Shown here: piece by piece, positions 293 to 26,500 of the stretch | Layout of the letters: each line of letters starts with the position of its first letter | How positions within the stretch are numbered: the first letter of the stretch is position 1 | Assembly (NCBI GenBank): GCA_018829485.1 | Contig: JAHJTU010000086.1 | Location: 1-33,061, forward strand | Reading direction: 5' to 3' | DNA length: 33,061 nt | DNA from: Nanobdellota archaeon | GTDB lineage: Archaea; Nanobdellota; Nanobdellia; Pacearchaeales; UBA12030 | Position numbers and translations under genes: made by a program | Notes under the pieces: model-generated | Databases searched by the model: none | Told to the model about the DNA's origin: nothing | What the model saw: only the letters and a program-made list of their open reading frames with translations

Positions 293-316
293 TCTTTGAA
301 ACATTTTATTTTTTTA

Positions 317-1378
317 ATGGAAAAAAACTTAGTTGATAGATTAAAAGAAGCAAGACAGGGTGATTTATTAGGTAGTAAGGAATTAAAAGCAATAGCAAAA
401 GTTGAGTCTGCAGTTCTTAGAGGATTTAGAAACTATTGTGAAAGTGAGGGCTTTGAAGAACTTATAGTTCCGCATATGACTGCTGCAACAGGTGCTTGTG
501 AGAATTTTTTAACTGTATTTCCTGTTGAGTATTTTGGAAAAACAGCTTATTTATCCCAAACAGGACAGTTGTATCTTGAAGCATTTGTTCCTAGCATGAG
601 AAAAGTATGTTGTGCAGGGTCAAGTTTTAGAAAAGAACCTGATGTAGATAATAGGCATTTAGTTGAATTTCCCTTACTTGAGATAGAAGAAGCAGATATT
701 ACTTTGGATGTACTAAAAGATAGAATTTCTGGAATAGTTAATTCAATGATAACAAGTGTAGGAGAGAGATGCGGTTCAGAATTAAGTTTGTTAGATATAG
801 ACAGCAAATGGCTTGGACATTTAACCCCACCATATAATTCAATAACTTATGGAAAAGCTATTGAAACCTTAAATAAATATGACTATGATTTGAAATGGGG
901 CAATGACTTGAAATCAAAACATGAACATAAACTTATAGAGATAAATGAAGGTATGCCTTTATTTGTTACACATTATCCGCAAGAGATAAAGTTTTTTAAT
1001 ATGAGGCAGAACAGAGACAATCCTTTAATTGTTAATAGCGCAGATTTTCTTTTTCCCTATGGTGGAGAAGCTGTTGGTGCTGCTGAACGTGAAGAAGATT
1101 ACTCTATTTTAGAAAAACGGTTGTATGAATCAAAGATGTTGGAATTAATGTGTGAAGCAATTAAACAAGAACCCGGAGAATTTGCAAATAAACCTATTAG
1201 AGAATTAAAAGAAGAAGGGATTAATAGATTTAGGTGGTACTTGGATTTGGTTAAACAATCTCCTGTAAGACATGCAGGTTGCGGAATTGGAATGAATAGA
1301 ATTGTTCAGGGAATTTTGAAGTGTCCAGATATAAGGGCTTCAACAATATATCCATTGAATAGAAAAACCCTAATGTAA
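317..1378 (+). CDS. Class II aminoacyl-tRNA-synthetase catalytic-core paralog (AsnRS/AspRS-like; archaeal AsnA-type asparagine synthetase candidate) without an anticodon-binding domain
   Basis: Class II motif 2-like SFRKEPDVDNRHLVEFPLLEIE and motif 3-like RHAGCGIGMNRIVQ, plus QTGQLYLE and GGEAVGAAEREED. The protein starts directly at the catalytic core with no N-terminal OB domain. Start moved from TTG 296 to ATG 317. Confidence 0.75.
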   Translation: MEKNLVDRLKEARQGDLLGSKELKAIAKVESAVLRGFRNYCESEGFEELIVPHMTAATGACENFLTVFPVEYFGKTAYLSQTGQLYLEAFVPSMRKVCCAGSSFRKEPDVDNRHLVEFPLLEIEEADITLDVLKDRISGIVNSMITSVGERCGSELSLLDIDSKWLGHLTPPYNSITYGKAIETLNKYDYDLKWGNDLKSKHEHKLIEINEGMPLFVTHYPQEIKFFNMRQNRDNPLIVNSADFLFPYGGEAVGAAEREEDYSILEKRLYESKMLELMCEAIKQEPGEFANKPIRELKEEGINRFRWYLDLVKQSPVRHAGCGIGMNRIVQGILKCPDIRASTIYPLNRKTLM

Positions 1379-2087: not shown

Positions 2088-2456
2088 TTATTGTTTTGTT
2101 TTAAAAAATAACCAATTCTTTTCTCTGAATTTTATTAATGCATATTTTCCTTTCAATTTATTGCCTTTAATTTCTATAAGAATTTTTTTTGGTGTTTTTT
2201 CAAGTAGTATGTAAGTTCCCTTATCCCATATTTTTACTGTTCCTTTTCCATAACCTTCTTTTATTTCTCCTTGAAATGATGCATATCCAAGAGAATGATC
2301 TGCAACTTGCACTGCCAATCTTTTTTCTCCTATTTTTACTGATGGTTTTTTTGGAACAGCCCAGCTCTTTAATTTATTTCCAAATTGCAATCTTAAATCA
2401 TAATGTGCTTTTTTAGACCTGTGAAATTGTATTACATATACTCTATTTTGCATCAT
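2088..2456 (-). CDS. LigD-type DNA 3'-phosphoesterase (PE) domain protein, stand-alone
   Basis: VYVIQFHRSKKAHYDLRLQF..LKSWAVPKKPS matches the LigD PE core (xQxHxAxxxHYDxRLE...SWAVPKGPS). Start placed at Met11 (2456), overlapping the upstream gene's end by 14 nt. Confidence 0.85.
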   Translation of the reverse strand: MMQNRVYVIQFHRSKKAHYDLRLQFGNKLKSWAVPKKPSVKIGEKRLAVQVADHSLGYASFQGEIKEGYGKGTVKIWDKGTYILLEKTPKKILIEIKGNKLKGKYALIKFREKNWLFFKTKQ

Positions 2457-3510
2457 TTTTATTTTTATGGTAATGTAATCTCGCATTTAATCTTTTTCTT
2501 TCTTTTGCTTCTTCAGACTCATTATCTTTCCATTTATATTCATAACATTTTATTGGTGATGGACCAATATAATTTAAAAATTTATTTGCATCGGATTTTT
2601 TTATGGCCAGTTCATATCTATAATTTACTTTACATATTCTTATTTGAATATTTAATTCTTTCTCAATAAGATTTTTCAAAAAATAAATATCTTTTTTATT
2701 AAAAGCATCTAAACAAAGTTTTATTTCTCTATAAAAATTCCCATCACAGAGATAACATTGGAGTAAGAGATCTCTATTTATTATGATCTCTTTTGGAATT
2801 CCTTTTTTTCCTCTTTTATACCATTTATCCCTAAATAACTCAAAAGTTTTATACCGCCTTGTTTGTAAAAAATGTTGATTATACCCTTTATTTTTACATC
2901 GTTCATCTTTAATCCATCTAGAATGTATTGGACTAGAAAGAATATTCATATGAGATAATCTTGTTAAAATATATACTAAATATTCTTTATGTTTACAGGC
3001 TTGAGATAATGATCTTGGTAATATATTATCTTTTCTTTTTGGGATAGAAGCATCTCCAAGAAGCAAACCATCTATAAAAGATATGGTTTCTTTATTTAAA
3101 TTAAATTCTTTTGGAGGGTACTTGAGATTTATTTGATATTTGGAATTTCTTATCTTTATCTTATATTTTTTTAAATATCTTTTAACTGTTCCACGATCAA
3201 TTTTTAATTCCTTAGAAATATCTTTTATTCCTTTTTTATTTTTTATATACTCTTTTAGTAAATATTGTTTTGTTAATAATTTAGTGTATTTATATTTTCC
3301 ACCCAAAGAAGAAATAGTTGCTTGCTCTTTATGAGATCTTAAAGGGATGTTGTAGAAATGTAAATAATATCTTATTGTATTCCAGTCTTTTTTAAACTTT
3401 TTTTGTAATTGTGAAATAGAACTCTTATTTTGAAAGTATTCTTTTTTAAGAAGTTCTTTAGTTAATTCGTTTTTGTATCTCAATAATTTTGGATTTCGAT
3501 TTTTATACAT
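2443..3510 (-). CDS. Free-standing double-motif LAGLIDADG endonuclease with two N-terminal HTH-like repeats
   Basis: LAGLIDADG motifs FIDGLLLGDASI and LLQCYLCDGNF about 100 aa apart. Two repeated N-terminal modules: LLKKEYFQNKSSISQLQKKFKKDWNTIRYYL and LLKEYIKNKKGIKDISKELKIDRGTVKRYL. Start set at MYKNRNPK (3510), 21 nt downstream of a TATA box. Confidence 0.8.
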   Translation of the reverse strand: MYKNRNPKLLRYKNELTKELLKKEYFQNKSSISQLQKKFKKDWNTIRYYLHFYNIPLRSHKEQATISSLGGKYKYTKLLTKQYLLKEYIKNKKGIKDISKELKIDRGTVKRYLKKYKIKIRNSKYQINLKYPPKEFNLNKETISFIDGLLLGDASIPKRKDNILPRSLSQACKHKEYLVYILTRLSHMNILSSPIHSRWIKDERCKNKGYNQHFLQTRRYKTFELFRDKWYKRGKKGIPKEIIINRDLLLQCYLCDGNFYREIKLCLDAFNKKDIYFLKNLIEKELNIQIRICKVNYRYELAIKKSDANKFLNYIGPSPIKCYEYKWKDNESEEAKERKRLNARLHYHKNKNDAK

Positions 3511-3531
3511 AATATAACAAAGAAAATAGAA

Positions 3532-3539
3532 TATATAAA
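3532..3539 (-). promoter_or_regulatory. TATA box (TTTATATA on the minus strand) for the LAGLIDADG/PE/XPF operon
   Basis: Exactly 21 nt upstream of the ATG at 3510. Confidence 0.4.
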
Positions 3540-3714
3540 TATTTATATCCTGCATGTATTAACATTGCATGATGTTCATGAATTACATATTTTGCCATTT
3601 TCTTTTTATTAGTGTCTCTTTAATAAAGTTTCAATAATTAAAAATGTAACTATGGTTATGAAAGTTAATATTCACAACACAAATCTACCTTAAGTAAAGG
3701 AAAAAATAGGAAAA

Positions 3715-3722
3715 TTTATATA
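3715..3722 (+). promoter_or_regulatory. TATA box (TTTATATA) preceded by an A-rich BRE-like tract
   Basis: AAAATTTATATA lies exactly 21 nt upstream of the ATG at 3744, predicting a leaderless transcript that starts at the small ORF. Confidence 0.45.
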
Positions 3723-3743
3723 CTTAAAAAGATTAAAAGATAA

Positions 3744-3854
3744 ATGGAAAAATACAAAATTTCGAAAAGGATATCTGAAAAAGACTTAGAAAAAGCACTT
3801 AGTTTTTTAGAAAAAAAAAGAAAATTTCATACCCGGCGCACCTTATTAATTTGA
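3744..3854 (+). CDS. Small 36-aa basic ORF upstream of the radical SAM gene (hypothetical)
   Basis: MEKYKISKRISEKDLEKALSFLEKKRKFHTRRTLLI*. It is below the ORF-track size cutoff, has a consensus promoter at leaderless spacing, and ends 20 nt before the 3875 ATG. No Cys and no homology recognised. Confidence 0.35.
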   Translation: MEKYKISKRISEKDLEKALSFLEKKRKFHTRRTLLI

Positions 3855-3874
3855 TGCTTTTTATTCCTTTATAA

Positions 3875-5569
3875 ATGGGAAAAATTAAATTTAGACCAAT
3901 CCATGTTATTTGGCATATCACTAACTCTTGTTTTTTTAATTGCAAATATTGTTTTACTAATTCTTATCCAAACTACAATTCCCCACCAAAGAAATCACAT
4001 TTACAAACCATTGTAAAGAGGATAAATGAAAATAAGAGTATAAAAAATCTTTCAATAATTGGTGGAGAGCCACTTTTAATTAATGAGCTCCCAGAAGTAA
4101 TCGAAAATTTAAGGAAGGACATATCTGTTAATATTGATTCTACTTTAATTGGAATTAAAGATAAATATGTTGATTCTTTTAAAAGGGTTTTATTCTCAAC
4201 AACTATTGATAGTATTGATGAATATATAAATACCAAAACAAGACCCAATCATTCATCAAAAGAAACAATAAAGAATATTGAATTTTTATTAAATAAAGGA
4301 ATAAGAGTACAGGTAGTTATAGTTGTGACAAAAAATAATGTAAAAACTATTGAAAAAACCGCAAGATTTTTATTGAATTTAGGTGTTGAAAGAATTTCGA
4401 TTAATCAAATCAGAATGGTTGGAAGAGCTCTCGATTTTGATTATGAATATTTTTATGATAATTCCAAAGAGATTAAAAATGATATTGCAACCCTGTTAAA
4501 AAGATTAATAAAAGAGTATAAAAAGTCTCGGGTTTTAGCAAATAATTGGTATTGTGATGAGATTTTTGATATTGGTTATGAACTTCCACCAACTTGTTCA
4601 TGCGCTCTTTTTAAAGTGTGTATTGATTGGAATGGTTATCTCTATCCTTGTGAATTGATGCCTTTCTACTGGAGAGAATTTGAAAAAGTATACAGGTTTA
4701 AGAGAATTAATTTAAAAAAAAGTTCTATTTCAGATATTTTTAATCACTCTTCACTTTTCAATTTTTTTAGAGAAAAAATCTTAATTTACCCTCCAACATG
4801 CAGTAAATGTGATTATAAGAAAAAATGCAATCATGGTTGTAGATTTTATTCCTTCTTGTTCTCTACAAATCTTTTATCTCAAGATCCTTTATGTAAAAAA
4901 TTTATTTCTCTTTACGATGTAATAGGATATCAAAATTATTCTCCATTCTCAAAACAAGGAATTAAAAGACTAAAAGGGGGGGTTGCAGATTATTTGAAAA
5001 AAAACAGTAAGATTCTTGGTAAAAATATATATGATATTGGTTGTGGTGGCGGGGTTTGGACATTTTATTTAGAAGATTTGGGTAAAAAATTAATAGGAAT
5101 TGATAATAATCAGATTATGATTCTAATAGCGCAAGATTATAAAAAATTACACCATAAGAAATCAGAATTTATTTTCTCAGACATATTAAATGTAAATTAT
5201 CAGAAATCAGATACTATTTTAATGTTGGACAATCTTGTTTTAATGTTTTCGAAAAAAGACCTAACTAATATTCTAGAAAAAATCAAGAATAAAACTAAAA
5301 GATTAATATTAGAACTTAATAAAAACAAATTAAAAGAAGGTGTGCAAGAATACACTTTTAATTCTTTCGACATAAGAGAGATTGTTTTAAGGAAGAATAA
5401 AAATATCTGTGAGAGAATCTTTCTGAACAAACAAACGGGCGCAGAATTCAAATTAAAAAATTATGATTGGACTAAAAGAGATCTAATTAATTTCCTAAAA
5501 AAACAAGGAGATGTCTTTGAAGATGAATCCAATAATTCTTATTTAATAAGATTGGATTTTCATCACTAA
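3875..5569 (+). CDS. Radical SAM / SPASM-domain protein fused to a C-terminal class I SAM-dependent methyltransferase
   Basis: CX3CX2C cluster (NSCFFNCKYC). SPASM-like Cys motifs CSCALFKVCIDWNGYLYPC and CSKCDYKKKCNHGC (CX2CX5CX3C). Methyltransferase motif I at IYDIGCGGGVW. Confidence 0.85.
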   Translation: MGKIKFRPIHVIWHITNSCFFNCKYCFTNSYPNYNSPPKKSHLQTIVKRINENKSIKNLSIIGGEPLLINELPEVIENLRKDISVNIDSTLIGIKDKYVDSFKRVLFSTTIDSIDEYINTKTRPNHSSKETIKNIEFLLNKGIRVQVVIVVTKNNVKTIEKTARFLLNLGVERISINQIRMVGRALDFDYEYFYDNSKEIKNDIATLLKRLIKEYKKSRVLANNWYCDEIFDIGYELPPTCSCALFKVCIDWNGYLYPCELMPFYWREFEKVYRFKRINLKKSSISDIFNHSSLFNFFREKILIYPPTCSKCDYKKKCNHGCRFYSFLFSTNLLSQDPLCKKFISLYDVIGYQNYSPFSKQGIKRLKGGVADYLKKNSKILGKNIYDIGCGGGVWTFYLEDLGKKLIGIDNNQIMILIAQDYKKLHHKKSEFIFSDILNVNYQKSDTILMLDNLVLMFSKKDLTNILEKIKNKTKRLILELNKNKLKEGVQEYTFNSFDIREIVLRKNKNICERIFLNKQTGAEFKLKNYDWTKRDLINFLKKQGDVFEDESNNSYLIRLDFHH

Positions 5570-5615: not shown

Positions 5616-7160
5616 TCATATTTCAAAATCATTAAGGTCTTTCTGCTTTTTATTCTTTTTTGCAAACTCTTCTTTTAATCCTTGCAAAATTCCATGCATT
5701 TTCTTTTCTTTGTGTCTTGCAGCATAGTAATAACTTTCATCTCTTGTTTTTACAGTTATTAATAAAATTAATTTTCCTGGTTTTAATCTTGCAGTTCTTC
5801 CTGCTCTTTGTATTTTTCTTATTACACTTGGAATTGATTCATAAAAAATCACAATATTAACTTCTGGTATATCTAATCCTTCTTCTCCTATTGATGTTGC
5901 TACAAGACAATTAATTTTTCCTTCTGAAAATTCTTTAATAATTTCCTGCTGTTCCTTTTGCTTCATTCCTTTATCTCCTCTTTGCCCAATAAAAATCTTG
6001 GATTTGATTTTTAATTTTCTTAATTCTTCATTTATTTTATCTACTGTATATCTATATTGAGCAAAAATCAATATTTTTTGAGTTGATTTTCTTAATTCTT
6101 TTTTTACAATTTCCAAAAGCTTCTTTAATTTTGGATGTTCTTCGTCATCAGAAAGATTTTTTATTTTAGCAAGAGCAAGCTGAAAATCTACATTTTTGAA
6201 AAGATTTTTTACTGCTTTTGTTTTTCCTGCTCTTTCATCAGCTTCTAATCCTTTAATATAACTTTTTAATGAGTGTATTGTTTGAGTTTCAAGTAATTCA
6301 ATTGCATGCTGTACTTTAAGAACCTCAGAAACAAGTGAAACACCTTTTAAGACATGAAAATGCTTGTTCCCAGAAAAAGATGCTCTCATAAGTTTTTGTT
6401 GAAGTTCAATAAATGTTCTTTTATTTATAACTTTTGTATACAATAATCCCCTGTTTCTTAATTCTTCAATTCTTTTTTCCAAAACTTTATGCAAATGTAT
6501 TCTTATATCTTTAAATTTCTCAGGCAATTCAACTTTTATTTGCTCTGTTTTTAATTCTTTGACATACTGTTTTACATCTTCACTTTCTCTTGTTCTTACT
6601 TCAACTTCCTGTATTCCCAAATTACTGCAAATTTGATTTATTCTAATAATATCACTTCCAGGAGATGCTGTTAATCCAAGAATTAAAGGATTTTTTGACT
6701 GTTCTTTGTAAATTTTTGCAACATAATTATAATCATAATTTTTTATACATCTGTGCGCTTCATCTTCTATAAGCAAGGAAAAATTTTCCAAATTCATTTT
6801 TCCATTTCTTAAATCATTTGCAACACATTGGGGTGTTGAAAATATAATTGTGGCAGAATTCCATATTAAATATCTGTTTTTAGGATTTATTTCTCCTGTA
6901 ACAAGTGTAAAATCATCTTCATCTAAACCTTCTATGTGTTTTTTGAATGTATTATAATGCTGGTTAGCTAATGGTTTTGTTGGAGCAAGTAAAAGTATTT
7001 GGGAACCCCTAATTTTATTTAATCTATCAATTGCAACAAGTATTGATATTGCTGTTTTTCCTAAACCAGTTGGCAGAACAACAAGAGTAAATTTATTTTT
7101 TGCATTATTTGCTATAATTTCTTGATATTCCCTTGGTATTAATCCCCTTATTTTTAGCAT
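5616..7160 (-). CDS. hef: Hef/FANCM-type SF2 helicase (helicase portion only)
   Basis: REYQEIIA...LVVLPTGLGKT (Walker A), IEDEAH (DEAH box), LGLTASPG (motif III), QRAGRTAR (motif VI). No nuclease domain at the C terminus. Confidence 0.9.
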   Translation of the reverse strand: MLKIRGLIPREYQEIIANNAKNKFTLVVLPTGLGKTAISILVAIDRLNKIRGSQILLLAPTKPLANQHYNTFKKHIEGLDEDDFTLVTGEINPKNRYLIWNSATIIFSTPQCVANDLRNGKMNLENFSLLIEDEAHRCIKNYDYNYVAKIYKEQSKNPLILGLTASPGSDIIRINQICSNLGIQEVEVRTRESEDVKQYVKELKTEQIKVELPEKFKDIRIHLHKVLEKRIEELRNRGLLYTKVINKRTFIELQQKLMRASFSGNKHFHVLKGVSLVSEVLKVQHAIELLETQTIHSLKSYIKGLEADERAGKTKAVKNLFKNVDFQLALAKIKNLSDDEEHPKLKKLLEIVKKELRKSTQKILIFAQYRYTVDKINEELRKLKIKSKIFIGQRGDKGMKQKEQQEIIKEFSEGKINCLVATSIGEEGLDIPEVNIVIFYESIPSVIRKIQRAGRTARLKPGKLILLITVKTRDESYYYAARHKEKKMHGILQGLKEEFAKKNKKQKDLNDFEI

Positions 7161-10447: not shown

Positions 10448-10942
10448 TTACTTGTATACTGCTATCATTGGTCTTAGAAATATATCTTTTTTTGTTTTTG
10501 GATATGGGCCATAGTAATCCATCCAAACAATAAGAAAATCATCTTTTCTTAATTTTCTTCTTTTGCCAATTTCTGGGTCTTGTAAATATATGTGCTCTTT
10601 ATCTAATCCAATAACAACAGAATAATGTCCGTCAGCTGTAATACTTTCAGCATCTCCTTTTTTTCCTTTAGTATACCAACCAATAACAACTGGAATTCCT
10701 TTTTTTAAGTACTTGTTTAAATCTGAGAAATTTGAATTTACTTTTGTTTTTGTTTTCAATCCAAAATATTTGAATGCTTTTTCCAAATCTACTATTTCAG
10801 TTCCATGTTTTTCATGTGTTTTAGCAATTTTTGCAATAACCTTTTCAGAGATTTTTATTTTATAAAATTTGAGAATCATCTTTAAAACAGCTGGACCACA
10901 ACTGATAGTTTGTGTATATGGTTTAATTTTTAGAAATCCCAT
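10448..10942 (-). CDS. Stand-alone peptidase C39-like (papain-fold cysteine peptidase) domain protein
   Basis: Candidate catalytic Cys in QTISCGPAVLKMIL, His in DGHYSVVIGL and a following DP, in the order typical of C39-like domains. No ABC-transporter part. Confidence 0.65.
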   Translation of the reverse strand: MGFLKIKPYTQTISCGPAVLKMILKFYKIKISEKVIAKIAKTHEKHGTEIVDLEKAFKYFGLKTKTKVNSNFSDLNKYLKKGIPVVIGWYTKGKKGDAESITADGHYSVVIGLDKEHIYLQDPEIGKRRKLRKDDFLIVWMDYYGPYPKTKKDIFLRPMIAVYK

Positions 10943-14771: not shown

Positions 14772-15257
14772 TTAATTTATTATTTCTTTGAAGGTTTTCC
14801 TGTATTCTTGGATACGTTCATTTGTTAACTTTGAAATAAAATCAGAGATTTCACTATTGAATATATCTGCCTTTTTTATTGCATCTTTAACTTCTTCTTT
14901 TGTTATAGAGAAATTAATATAATATTGCTTGTCAATTCTTTCTCTTTTTGCAGTTAAAATTTCATTATTATTTTGGTTGAATAATCTTTTTAGAAGAACA
15001 ATAGATGCAAGATGGTTTTCTGATTTTATTCCTATTTTGAAAAGCAATGCAGTTAAAAGATGATACATGCTGTAATAAACCAATGATATAGATTCTTCAA
15101 GTTTATTGCTATTTAAAAGTATTTTTGCAGAACCCATATTGCTTTCAGATTTTTTAATATAAGCTTTCTTAACTTCTTCACTAGGTTCAACAAGTTCAAG
15201 TTTCCCCTCTTTTATTAATTTATTCAAAAAATTTGTTTTTTTCATAATATTTTTCAA
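14772..15257 (-). CDS. HEPN-domain protein (toxin-like partner of the adjacent nucleotidyltransferase)
   Basis: All-helical, about 160 aa, with AKRERIDKQYY resembling the conserved R..(D)Y region of HEPN proteins. It overlaps the end of the upstream NTase gene, the classic MNT-HEPN pair layout. Confidence 0.65.
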   Translation of the reverse strand: MKNIMKKTNFLNKLIKEGKLELVEPSEEVKKAYIKKSESNMGSAKILLNSNKLEESISLVYYSMYHLLTALLFKIGIKSENHLASIVLLKRLFNQNNNEILTAKRERIDKQYYINFSITKEEVKDAIKKADIFNSEISDFISKLTNERIQEYRKTFKEIIN

Positions 15258-15768
15258 CCCCCTTTATAATGATATGGTTTTTTTCAATCTCTTTAATCAA
15301 TAAATTCTCTTTATCATATTTTCCTATTTTAACATTTATTCTTGCATCTATCTTTTCTAAGTCATGTTTAATTTGTTTTTTATTTGTTTCTACATATATG
15401 TCTATATCACTTTCTTTTTTAGGAATTCCTTTAGCATAAGAACCAAATAATATTGCAAGACTTATTCTTTTGTCTTCTTTTATCTTTTCTATAATGCTTC
15501 TTAATGTGGGATATTTTTTTAATATTTTTGTTAAGTTATAATTTTCTGTTGTAAAAACATAACTTTTAGCTTCTATTGTGTTTTTTAGAAAATATATCTT
15601 GTTTCTACCTTCTTCTTGATAATCTACCACATTCTCATTTGTGAGTTCTTTTAGTTTTCTGATTATAATGGTGTGGTTAGTGCCTAAGTTTTTTGCAATC
15701 AACCTAGCATGTTTTTTACTTTTTACTAATTCATTAATTATTTCTAATTTGTAATCTTTTTGTTCCAT
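15220..15768 (-). CDS. Winged-HTH fused to a minimal nucleotidyltransferase (MNT) domain
   Basis: NTase signature LFGSYAKGIPKKESDIDIYV (GSx9-10 DxD). N-terminal HTH-like KHARLIAKNLGTNHTIIIRKLKELTNENVV. ATG at 15768; the ORF-track start at 15777 is a TTG. Confidence 0.8.
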   Translation of the reverse strand: MEQKDYKLEIINELVKSKKHARLIAKNLGTNHTIIIRKLKELTNENVVDYQEEGRNKIYFLKNTIEAKSYVFTTENYNLTKILKKYPTLRSIIEKIKEDKRISLAILFGSYAKGIPKKESDIDIYVETNKKQIKHDLEKIDARINVKIGKYDKENLLIKEIEKNHIIIKGVEKYYEKNKFFE

Positions 15769-15788
15769 ATGGAACAAATATGTTCCAT
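15761..15788. promoter_or_regulatory. Operator-like palindrome plus a third half-site over the MNT start codon
   Basis: TGTTCCATATGGAACA is a perfect 16-nt palindrome (15761-15776). TGTTCCAT occurs again at 15781-15788. Both lie between the TATA (TTTAAATA, minus strand, 15791-15798) and the ATG. Confidence 0.55.
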
Positions 15789-26344: not shown

Positions 26345-26500
26345 TGCCCCTACTAGGATTCGAACCTAGATTGTGGCCTTTTTGTTATCTATAGGCGAAC
26401 GGGGATTCGAACCCCGATTACAACCTTTTTGCTACTAACCGCAAGGTCGCGTACTTTCCAATTATACTATTCGCCTTTTTGAATTTTACACTATAGGGGC
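26345..26500 (-). other. Outer tRNA-like element: 5' acceptor strand and start of a D-arm (26477-26500) plus T-arm and 3' acceptor strand (26345-26391), enclosing the tRNA below
   Basis: Minus strand reads GCCCCTA-TA-GTGTAA... at 26500 downward. At the other end it reads ...A-GGCCA-CAAT-CTAGG-TTCGAAT-CCTAG-TAGGGGC-A. The 7-bp acceptor complementarity is perfect and the T-loop is consensus. No D-arm 3' strand or anticodon arm is present. Confidence 0.45.
26392..26476 (-). tRNA. tRNA-Arg (anticodon GCG) with a 12-nt intron at the canonical 37/38 position
   Basis: Hand-folded. Acceptor AGGCGAA/TTCGCCT (7 bp). U8, D-stem GTAT/GTAC, G18G19, A21. Anticodon stem CGACC/GGTTG. Loop TTGCGG[ttagtagcaaaa]A. 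Variable loop TAAT. T-arm CGGGG-TTCGAAT-CCCCG. Discriminator A. Confidence 0.8.

Follow-up and report, generated by a model that had tools for sequence, protein, structure and literature searches.

The 33,061-nt stretch of DNA analysed here (the window) comprises positions 1–33,061 of the forward strand of contig JAHJTU010000086.1, from the Nanobdellota archaeon assembly GCA_018829485.1. Within its first 6 kb lies a pair of genes that, judging from sequence, very probably forms a self-contained, leaderless two-gene cassette resembling those for peptides that are synthesized on ribosomes and modified after translation (RiPPs), and very probably represents an undescribed family of enzyme-modified peptides. 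The first gene encodes a small peptide and the second a large fusion enzyme with a radical S-adenosylmethionine (SAM) core, a SPASM domain, and a methyltransferase domain. The parts of the cassette are as follows.

3715–3722, + strand: TATA box TTTATATA of the cassette promoter, starting at −29 from the peptide ATG.
3744–3854, + strand: open reading frame (ORF) of 36 amino acids (aa) as literally encoded, with the out-of-frame tail RKFHTRRTLLI (ORF list).
3744–3849, + strand: precursor gene as read with one A fewer, 34 aa, MEKYKISKRISEKDLEKALSFLEKKENFIPGAPY-stop (independent assembly, family alignment).
About 3744–3828, + strand: leader of the precursor, followed by the core IPGAPY at 3829–3846 and the stop codon at 3847–3849.
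3811–3819, + strand: run of nine A (A9) that shifts the conserved core out of frame (A8 in an independent assembly).
3875–5569, + strand: gene for the radical SAM/SPASM/class I methyltransferase fusion, 564 aa (Pfam, NCBIfam, alignment, AlphaFold2 model).
3917–4372, + strand: radical SAM core, residues 15–166, with CX3CX2C at 3929–3952 and GGE at 4061–4069.
4595–4894, + strand: SPASM domain, residues 241–340, with the cysteine set for two auxiliary 4Fe-4S clusters and CX2CX5CX3C at 4799–4840.
4907–5566, + strand: class I SAM-dependent methyltransferase domain, residues ~345–564, with motif I (DIGCGGG) at 5033–5053.

An earlier note, made from the letters of the window alone, had proposed that a single 564-aa ORF combines these three domains, and model searches of the kind it suggested place all three above curated cut-offs. 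Radical_SAM (PF04055) matched residues 15–166 with 66.8 bits (gathering cut-off 29.5), SPASM (PF13186) matched residues 241–313 with 28.4 bits (cut-off 21.5), and Methyltransf_25 matched residues 385–473 with 37.2 bits (cut-off 27), while Methyltransf_31 reached 29.9 bits (cut-off 27). When the SPASM region alone was compared with NCBIfam, TIGR04085 (SPASM domain) scored 37.9 bits against a cut-off of 27 over the full model (positions 1–93 of 93); the cysteine pattern that had been called SPASM-like therefore does align with SPASM models. The diagnostic motifs are CFFNCKYC (residues 19–26), CSKCDYKKKCNHGC (residues 309–322), and DIGCGGG (residues 387–393), with further SPASM-region cysteines at residues 241, 243, 259, and 340. 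In addition to the scores, the protein shows the CX3CX2C and GGE motifs of the radical SAM superfamily, a seven-cysteine SPASM pattern that includes CX2CX5CX3C, and the Rossmann-like fold and motif I glycine loop of class I methyltransferases. Across 18 family sequences, C19, C23, C26, G63-G64-E65, C241, C243, C259, C312, C318, C322, and C340 do not vary, and at least 90% of the aligned members keep C309. Together these residues supply every predicted ligand of the radical SAM cluster and of the pair of auxiliary clusters. Methyltransferase motif I is retained throughout the fusions, save that the two most distant ones read GAGGG.

A confident AlphaFold2 model of the enzyme, built from the 18-member alignment (pLDDT 87.3, pTM 0.85), was compared with the PDB, and its structural neighbours divide by domain. 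For the radical SAM half they are SuiB (5v1t), SkfB (6efn), and PqqE (6c8v), with CteB (5wgg) added by sequence, and all four of these nearest solved structures are peptide maturases. For the methyltransferase half they are PH0226 (1ve3, the best), 1wzn, PsmD, CypM, glycine-sarcosine N-methyltransferase (GSMT), TylM1, and CgnL, with a Foldseek probability of 1.00 for both PH0226 and 1wzn. Among the best 25 of 84 NCBIfam matches to the enzyme, no radical SAM equivalog came near its cut-off, the best being generic radical SAM/SPASM maturases at about 50–73 bits versus cut-offs of 265–650.

The peptide gene has a promoter of its own. A TATA-like box starting exactly at −29 from the start codon occurs at five of 35 window genes (those starting at 3744, 7233, 7536, 26510, and 29062), compared with about 0.05 expected from a motif density of 0.0015 per position per strand, and several more of the 35 genes scanned have a TATA-like box at −26 to −33. 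The argument that the 36-aa ORF stands at the leaderless spacing used by other genes of the window therefore holds, and the spacing implies that the peptide transcript would be leaderless. No correctly spaced TATA-like box of its own was found for the enzyme gene in the same window scan; since the box precedes the peptide gene alone, the two genes are most likely co-transcribed.

The 36-aa ORF itself is basic, contains no cysteine, and ends 20 nt before the enzyme ORF, with no meaningful match in Pfam or NCBIfam. Its existence, its coordinates, its lack of cysteine, and the position of its TATA box all stand as first described, while its last 11 codons do not. The ORF shares the family leader (MEKYKISKRISEKDLEKALSFLEKK...), but these 11 codons leave the conserved frame: behind the A9 run, the +1 frame from 3820 reads E-N-F-I-P-G-A-P-Y-stop. 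The sole public run found to contain the cassette stretch, a groundwater metagenome (X1), yielded a 5.8-kb Logan contig at word depth 29 that is identical to window positions 3600–4100 (501 bases) save for one A fewer at 3811. This A8 version reads MEKYKISKRISEKDLEKALSFLEKKENFIPGAPY-stop, a 34-aa peptide whose true C-terminus would be ...ENFIPGAPY and whose "...EKKEN-x-[I/M]-P" is the same letter for letter as in the peptide of the related locus L001. Since the independent assembly restores the conserved core, the RKFHTRRTLLI tail most probably stems from a miscounted homopolymer in the deposited assembly, or from a minor variant there.

The family to which the cassette belongs is small. A word-indexed search of 5.8 billion proteins returned only 20 relatives, including about ten full-length fusions with 48–54% identity, three fusions with 30–32%, and several radical SAM/SPASM-only proteins of 329–395 aa, and HMMER, run exhaustively over 1.84 billion cluster representatives, likewise returned only 20 proteins at E ≤ 1e-30. 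Among 185,579 species genomes, four true relatives (30–53% identical) were found. By source label the relatives are Pacearchaeota, Nanobdellota, or Micrarchaeota, with one further bin assigned to Methanosarcinales. The family is thus small and patchy in distribution and, to judge by labels, essentially confined to DPANN archaea.

A lack of conservation of the small ORF beside homologs of the fusion had been named as grounds for refutation, and no such lack was seen: a small ORF was found directly upstream of the enzyme in all 15 distinct relatives with readable upstream DNA, down to an enzyme identity of 30% (range 30–54%). These ORFs end in [M/L/I]-P-x-x-P-[Y/W] followed by none to two residues, or by 13 further residues in the Micrarchaeota clade, as listed here by locus.

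L001: ...ENSMPNLPYD
L002 and L003: ...KASMPSAPYD
L004: ...EADLPCAPYAE
L005: ...EESMPNPPYG
L006 and L007: ...NSMMPCPPYD
L008: ...DASMPNPPYD
L012 and L013: ...DSSMPNPPYD
L021: ...KNMMPNPPYD
L023: ...QNAMPAPPYD
L024: ...EATLPTAPYE
L009: ...ESLLPHAPY
L015: ...DSLLPTAPY
L027: ...KNALPYAPWD
L010, L011, and L017: ...DYPPTDPYPGSDEIPGDDD

In an alignment of eleven peptides, made before L027 with its Trp for Tyr was found, the sole invariant columns are P30, P33, and Y34 of P-x-x-P-Y. The peptides are 34–55 aa long, and their leaders follow a loose [KR]-I-[SP]-E-x-x-L-x-x-x-K-x-x-F pattern at only 9–44% identity, while the core is kept even where enzyme identity falls to 30–38%, with Y replaced by W in L027. 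By a rough estimate, P..PY would occur by chance in about 0.2% of random 40-codon AT-rich ORFs, and its recurrence is therefore far above chance. At many loci the peptide stop overlaps or abuts the enzyme ATG (TAATG or ATGA type), and in the window, L009, and L010 the two ORFs are 17–29 nt apart. The genes that flank the pair vary, being a LAGLIDADG ORF and a Hef helicase in the window, Hjc and a MetRS fragment in L001, an IS200-type transposase in L002, a transglutaminase and a DHHA1 protein in L004, and RsmI and MetRS in L006 and L021, which indicates that the gene pair is the conserved unit.

A small adjoining gene whose leader varies while its core is conserved, present at 15 of 15 distinct loci, is the pattern by which RiPP precursors are recognized, and we propose that the small peptide is the substrate of the fused bifunctional maturase, with a probability of roughly three in four. 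This proposal is favoured because the P-x-x-P-Y core is invariant, co-occurs with the enzyme, and is restored by A8, and of the three roles that had been left open for the small ORF (substrate, chaperone-like partner, or unrelated), substrate is by far the most likely in view of that core. In kind, the cassette is a radical SAM/SPASM RiPP system, set apart by the core motif, the fused methyltransferase, the absence of a RiPP recognition element (RRE), and the host group. No description of the family was found in full-text literature searches, and none of the curated models listed names it.

Several observations weigh against the proposal. The window's own sequence has the peptide out of frame, and the contigs give no population fraction for A8 versus A9. 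Homopolymer frameshifts also occur at L005 (1063–2836), where they affect both the peptide (an A6 run) and the enzyme (an A run before IYDIGCGGG), and at L008 (4667–6496), where a G8 run lies inside DLGCGGG; such breaks may reflect the assembly errors often seen in bins of this kind, or the decay of the copies. No RRE or PqqD-like leader-binding domain was found in the enzyme with Pfam, NCBIfam, or the AlphaFold2 model; the enzyme lacks an N-terminal extension, its radical SAM core starting at about residue 10. Nor do the loci examined show an RRE protein, protease, or exporter conserved beside the gene pair. RREs are common in RiPP systems and not obligatory. No public RNA run containing the cassette stretch was found. 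Finally, most structural neighbours of the methyltransferase half methylate N or C atoms, a point that bears on the methylation site discussed below.

The alternative that survives best takes the A9 run at face value. The precursor here would then be genuinely frame-shifted, as a pseudogene, a phase-variable switch, or a slippage-expressed copy, and the enzyme would be an orphan or only conditionally served. The window does read A9, runs of nine A are known slippage sites in bacteria, and the frameshifts of L005 and L008 offer company. Set against this are the A8 reading at word depth 29 in an independent groundwater assembly that is otherwise identical over 501 bases, the intact, full-length enzyme ORF of the window, and the frequency of homopolymer miscounts in assembly and polishing, and we regard the alternative as unlikely. 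One extra A was enough to hide a conserved core, which suggests that precursor mining in AT-rich metagenome bins should scan across frames.

A second alternative accepts the peptide as substrate and differs in the product, which would be an excised, peptide-derived cofactor or small metabolite used in the cell, much like pyrroloquinoline quinone (PQQ) or mycofactocin, rather than a bioactive or signalling peptide that leaves it. As in PqqA and MftA, the conserved part is indeed a very short C-terminal stretch containing an invariant Tyr, the MftC and PqqE models are among the best-scoring NCBIfam matches, and the gene pair has no exporter or immunity gene conserved alongside it. As in mycofactocin (MftA, ending ...GVY, with MftB and MftC), a SPASM enzyme accompanies a peptide with a C-terminal Tyr, which is the last residue in the window and in Nanobdellota-type members. 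Most peptides here, however, extend past the Tyr, one has Trp, and the ends are PY, PYD, or PWD rather than GVY; since residues follow Tyr in most members and one member has Trp, C-terminal Tyr decarboxylation cannot be the common chemistry of the family. Membership in MftC was rejected, with TIGR03962 at 69.4 bits against a cut-off of at least 265, no GVY peptide, and no MftB, MftD, MftE, or MftF gene. The likeness to PQQ (PqqA with Glu-x-x-x-Tyr, PqqD, and PqqE) lies in a SPASM enzyme that, in PQQ formation, joins a carbon to a Tyr ring through a C-C bond in a tiny peptide, and in the matches of the enzyme to both the PqqE structure and the PqqE model. PqqE membership was nonetheless rejected, since TIGR02109 reached 55.8 bits against a cut-off of 381, the motif is a different one without the conserved Glu, and PqqB, PqqC, PqqD, and PqqF genes are lacking. 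Moreover, neither PqqB/C/D- or MftB/D/E/F-like genes nor dependent dehydrogenases occur at any locus, Tyr is C-terminal in some members only, and the rare, patchy distribution (four true relatives in 185,579 species genomes) is more what one would expect of an accessory trait than of a cofactor. Taken together, a cofactor product seems rather improbable.

It is also conceivable that the small ORF acts as an upstream ORF with a regulatory role, for instance by encoding a Pro-rich ribosome-arrest or coupling peptide that governs translation of the enzyme, and that the substrate of the enzyme is encoded elsewhere. This would suit the many loci at which the peptide stop overlaps or abuts the enzyme start codon, as well as the lack of an RRE in the enzyme, and the Pro-rich end (PxxPY, often PPYD-stop) resembles the arrest motifs of which SecM- and TnaC-type peptides are known examples. 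On the other hand, the usual mark of a substrate in radical SAM/SPASM systems is an adjoining small ORF whose leader varies and whose C-terminal core is conserved, the Micrarchaeota clade has PxxPY 13 residues before the stop, which is unfit for arrest at termination, the ORFs of the window, L009, and L010 are 17–29 nt apart and uncoupled, and we know of no arrest peptide in archaea. A regulatory role of this kind is therefore very improbable. Least credible of all is a non-substrate partner, either chaperone-like or a structural subunit of the enzyme, which would explain the strict co-occurrence but would have to be built from 34–55 aa, too short for an RRE/PqqD fold, with only three C-terminal residues invariant and the rest at 9–44% identity, the opposite of a folded subunit.

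If the peptide is the substrate of the fused enzyme, a mechanism can be sketched by analogy with known maturases. The transcript would begin some 25 nt downstream from the TATA box (3715) and would encode the 34-aa precursor and then the bifunctional maturase. The radical SAM cluster would cleave SAM, and the resulting 5'-deoxyadenosyl radical would abstract hydrogen at one of the aliphatic C-H positions of the P-x-x-P segment, most likely at Pro(−4) or at the aliphatic residue at −5, giving the i to i+4 spacing of the streptide Lys-Trp cross-link. The substrate radical would then add to the invariant aromatic ring, which belongs to Tyr or, in one relative, to Trp; an electron would pass to the pair of auxiliary clusters in the SPASM domain, and a small C-C (or C-O) macrocycle would result, to which the fused class I methyltransferase would add a methyl group as a tailoring step. 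An aromatic cross-link is the likeliest kind of modification of the core, and the specific claim that it is formed onto the aromatic ring from within or just before P-x-x-P is a doubtful one, possible though short of an even chance. It is argued from three observations, namely that the aromatic residue is invariant with a tolerance of Y to W, that it stands at or near the C-terminus, and that the enzyme has an affinity to SuiB. The same three observations argue against C-terminal Tyr decarboxylation of the MftC type, tyramine splicing, and triceptide-type cross-links past the aromatic residue. By analogy, tolerance of Y to W with a kept core would be typical of aromatic cross-linking substrates.

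Among known systems, streptide (StrA/SuiA with StrB/SuiB, forming a Lys-Trp C-C cross-link) offers a close parallel in layout, with a short precursor followed by a SPASM radical SAM maturase. SuiB (5v1t) is the best structural neighbour of the radical SAM half (TM-score on target 0.55–0.59; sequence E = 1e-12), and in both systems an aromatic acceptor stands four residues past a conserved residue (K-x-x-x-W in streptide versus P-x-x-P-Y/W here) within a small C-terminal core. The differences are nonetheless considerable, in that the present family has no N-terminal RRE, no Lys-Trp motif, and no StrC-type transporter/protease, carries a fused methyltransferase, resides in DPANN hosts, and shares only about 17% sequence identity with SuiB in the enzyme. 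The darobactin and dynobactin maturases (DarE, DynA) and the triceptide 3-CyFE enzymes are similar as single SPASM radical SAM enzymes that form aromatic cross-links in very short cores, and DynA is among the best NCBIfam matches and is the best equivalog for the SPASM part. These systems differ in being bacterial and in having no fused methyltransferase, and DynA scored only 65 bits against a cut-off of 450.

Assignment to several other maturase classes was considered and rejected. Triceptide 3-CyFE chemistry acts on an aromatic-X-X motif and links the aromatic residue to the third one, so that it needs two residues past the aromatic residue, which is the last residue in the window, L009, and L015. 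Sactipeptides and ranthipeptides are incompatible with the Cys-free core of the window peptide, with cysteine occurring at a variable position in two of 14 peptides only, and the corresponding models scored 71.7 bits against 625 (StsB) and 51 against 340 (PapB); the absence of a conserved core Cys throughout the family thus agrees with the earlier note, which had discounted such a substrate on the 36-aa ORF alone. Finally, spliceotide splicease of the PlpX type requires a Tyr-Gly (XYG) motif and is specific for Tyr, and L005 alone ends in YG, the others ending in Y-stop, YD, YE, or YAE, with one W; no splicease model is among the best 25 of the 84 NCBIfam matches.

The methyltransferase half has a history that can be read from a maximum-likelihood tree of the radical SAM/SPASM part. 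Three proteins that lack the methyltransferase form one clade (support 100/100), and this clade is nested in the crown group (100/99), whose other members, like all three outgroup lineages, are fusions; on this tree, the fusion is ancestral and the methyltransferase has been lost once. The peptides of the methyltransferase-less clade keep M-P-x-P-P-Y-D, and a single loss with retention of the core marks methylation as a tailoring activity rather than the core chemistry. A PF00590 methylase upstream of the methyltransferase-less cassettes was considered as a replacement and proved to be RsmI (TIGR00096, 221–237 bits), a housekeeping rRNA methylase. With respect to the target, the methyltransferase half finds its best sequence-family matches in O-methyltransferases that act on carboxyl or phenol groups (BchM, UbiG, and BioC), and because these disagree with the structural neighbours, the methylation site is a guess. 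A carboxylate at the C-terminal end, which is acidic or free, is favoured as the methyl acceptor since it is the sole nucleophile common to all tails, though the assignment is speculative and may well be wrong. The RiPP methyltransferases CypM (of cypemycin) and CgnL (of crocagin) and archaeal enzymes of the PH0226 type share the class I fold and are structural neighbours, PH0226 being the best, but those enzymes are stand-alone, whereas the methyltransferase here is fused to a radical SAM/SPASM maturase and is only 12–19% identical to them.

Radical SAM/SPASM peptide maturation is well known in bacteria, and to our knowledge few archaeal RiPPs have been characterized and none from DPANN archaea, whose genomes are tiny and thought to retain only essentials. 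The cassette might specify a new archaeal class of ribosomally made peptide products, with a 6–8-residue [M/L/I]-P-x-x-P-[Y/W](-D) product bearing a hitherto unseen Pro (or aliphatic)-aromatic cross-link and a methyl (ester) cap, made by an RRE-less bifunctional enzyme that travels as a portable DPANN module; in this full form the proposal is tentative, and the odds are somewhat against it. If it is true, a cross-linked, methylated peptide is possibly used by ultra-small DPANN archaea in their dealings with host cells. Moreover, a compact, RRE-less two-gene cassette can be tested directly in E. coli and may reveal new cross-link chemistry.

No helper gene emerged from the genomic context. At the loci examined, neither an immunity gene nor a PqqD-like gene travels with the gene pair. 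In one lineage only (L006, L008, and L021), the cassette has an M16 peptidase and an AI-2E-type transporter upstream of it, which were set aside as lineage synteny. In five lineages, L001 (a fragment), L006, L008, L012/L013, and L021, a MetRS gene adjoins the cassette, either directly downstream or convergent with it. MetRS is absent from the window, L002–L004, and L009–L011; it was rejected as a cassette partner, and its adjacency is probably ancestral synteny. A C39 peptidase at 10448–10942 (−) was likewise rejected as a processing protease, being 5 kb off and not found at the other loci, and the peptides have no Gly-Gly site. The C39 protein itself, of 164 aa and of the bacteriocin-processing type, is stand-alone and has no ABC transporter part.

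The surroundings of the cassette in the window have features of their own. A Hef-type helicase (DEAD, Helicase_C, and helical bundle) and an ERCC4 nuclease with a helix-hairpin-helix (HhH) region are encoded by separate genes, at 1408–2067 (−) and 5616–7160 (−), which are 3.5 kb apart and have a LigD 3'-phosphoesterase (PE) gene, a LAGLIDADG ORF, and the cassette in between. This arrangement suggests an insertion into, or a split of, the Hef locus around the cassette. The LAGLIDADG_2 homing-endonuclease-like ORF (370 aa, 2443–3555, − strand, with NUMOD1 and helix-turn-helix (HTH) motifs) is free-standing, overlaps the LigD-PE ORF (2088–2486) by 44 nt, is divergent from the cassette, and may be a mobile element beside it.

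The window as a whole is AT-rich (23–34% G+C), and its genes are archaeal, including those for RadA, RPA, the Hef-type helicase, the ERCC4 nuclease, Sua5, and type IV pilus parts. RadA is 56–73% identical to proteins of metagenome-assembled genomes labelled Pacearchaeota, Woesearchaeota, or Nanoarchaeota, and this gene content, together with the RadA identities, places the host, as judged by sequence likeness, among DPANN archaea of a Pacearchaeota/Woesearchaeota-like group.

Elsewhere in the window, a class II aminoacyl-tRNA synthetase catalytic core (tRNA-synt_2, 360 aa) at 296–1378 (+) has no anticodon-binding domain and may represent either an asparagine synthetase of the AsnA kind or an AspRS/AsnRS that has been truncated; a full 501-aa version of this ORF is present in L001, about 3 kb upstream of its cassette. 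An Rfam scan of the window matched a tRNA only. This tRNA-Ala(TGC), at 26392–26476 (−), covers 85 nt versus 71 positions of the Rfam model, and probably has a short intron after the anticodon loop. Finally, genes for a HEPN protein (161 aa) and an MNT-type nucleotidyltransferase (185 aa, with an HTH) overlap at 14772–15777 (−) and look like a HEPN-MNT toxin-antitoxin pair.

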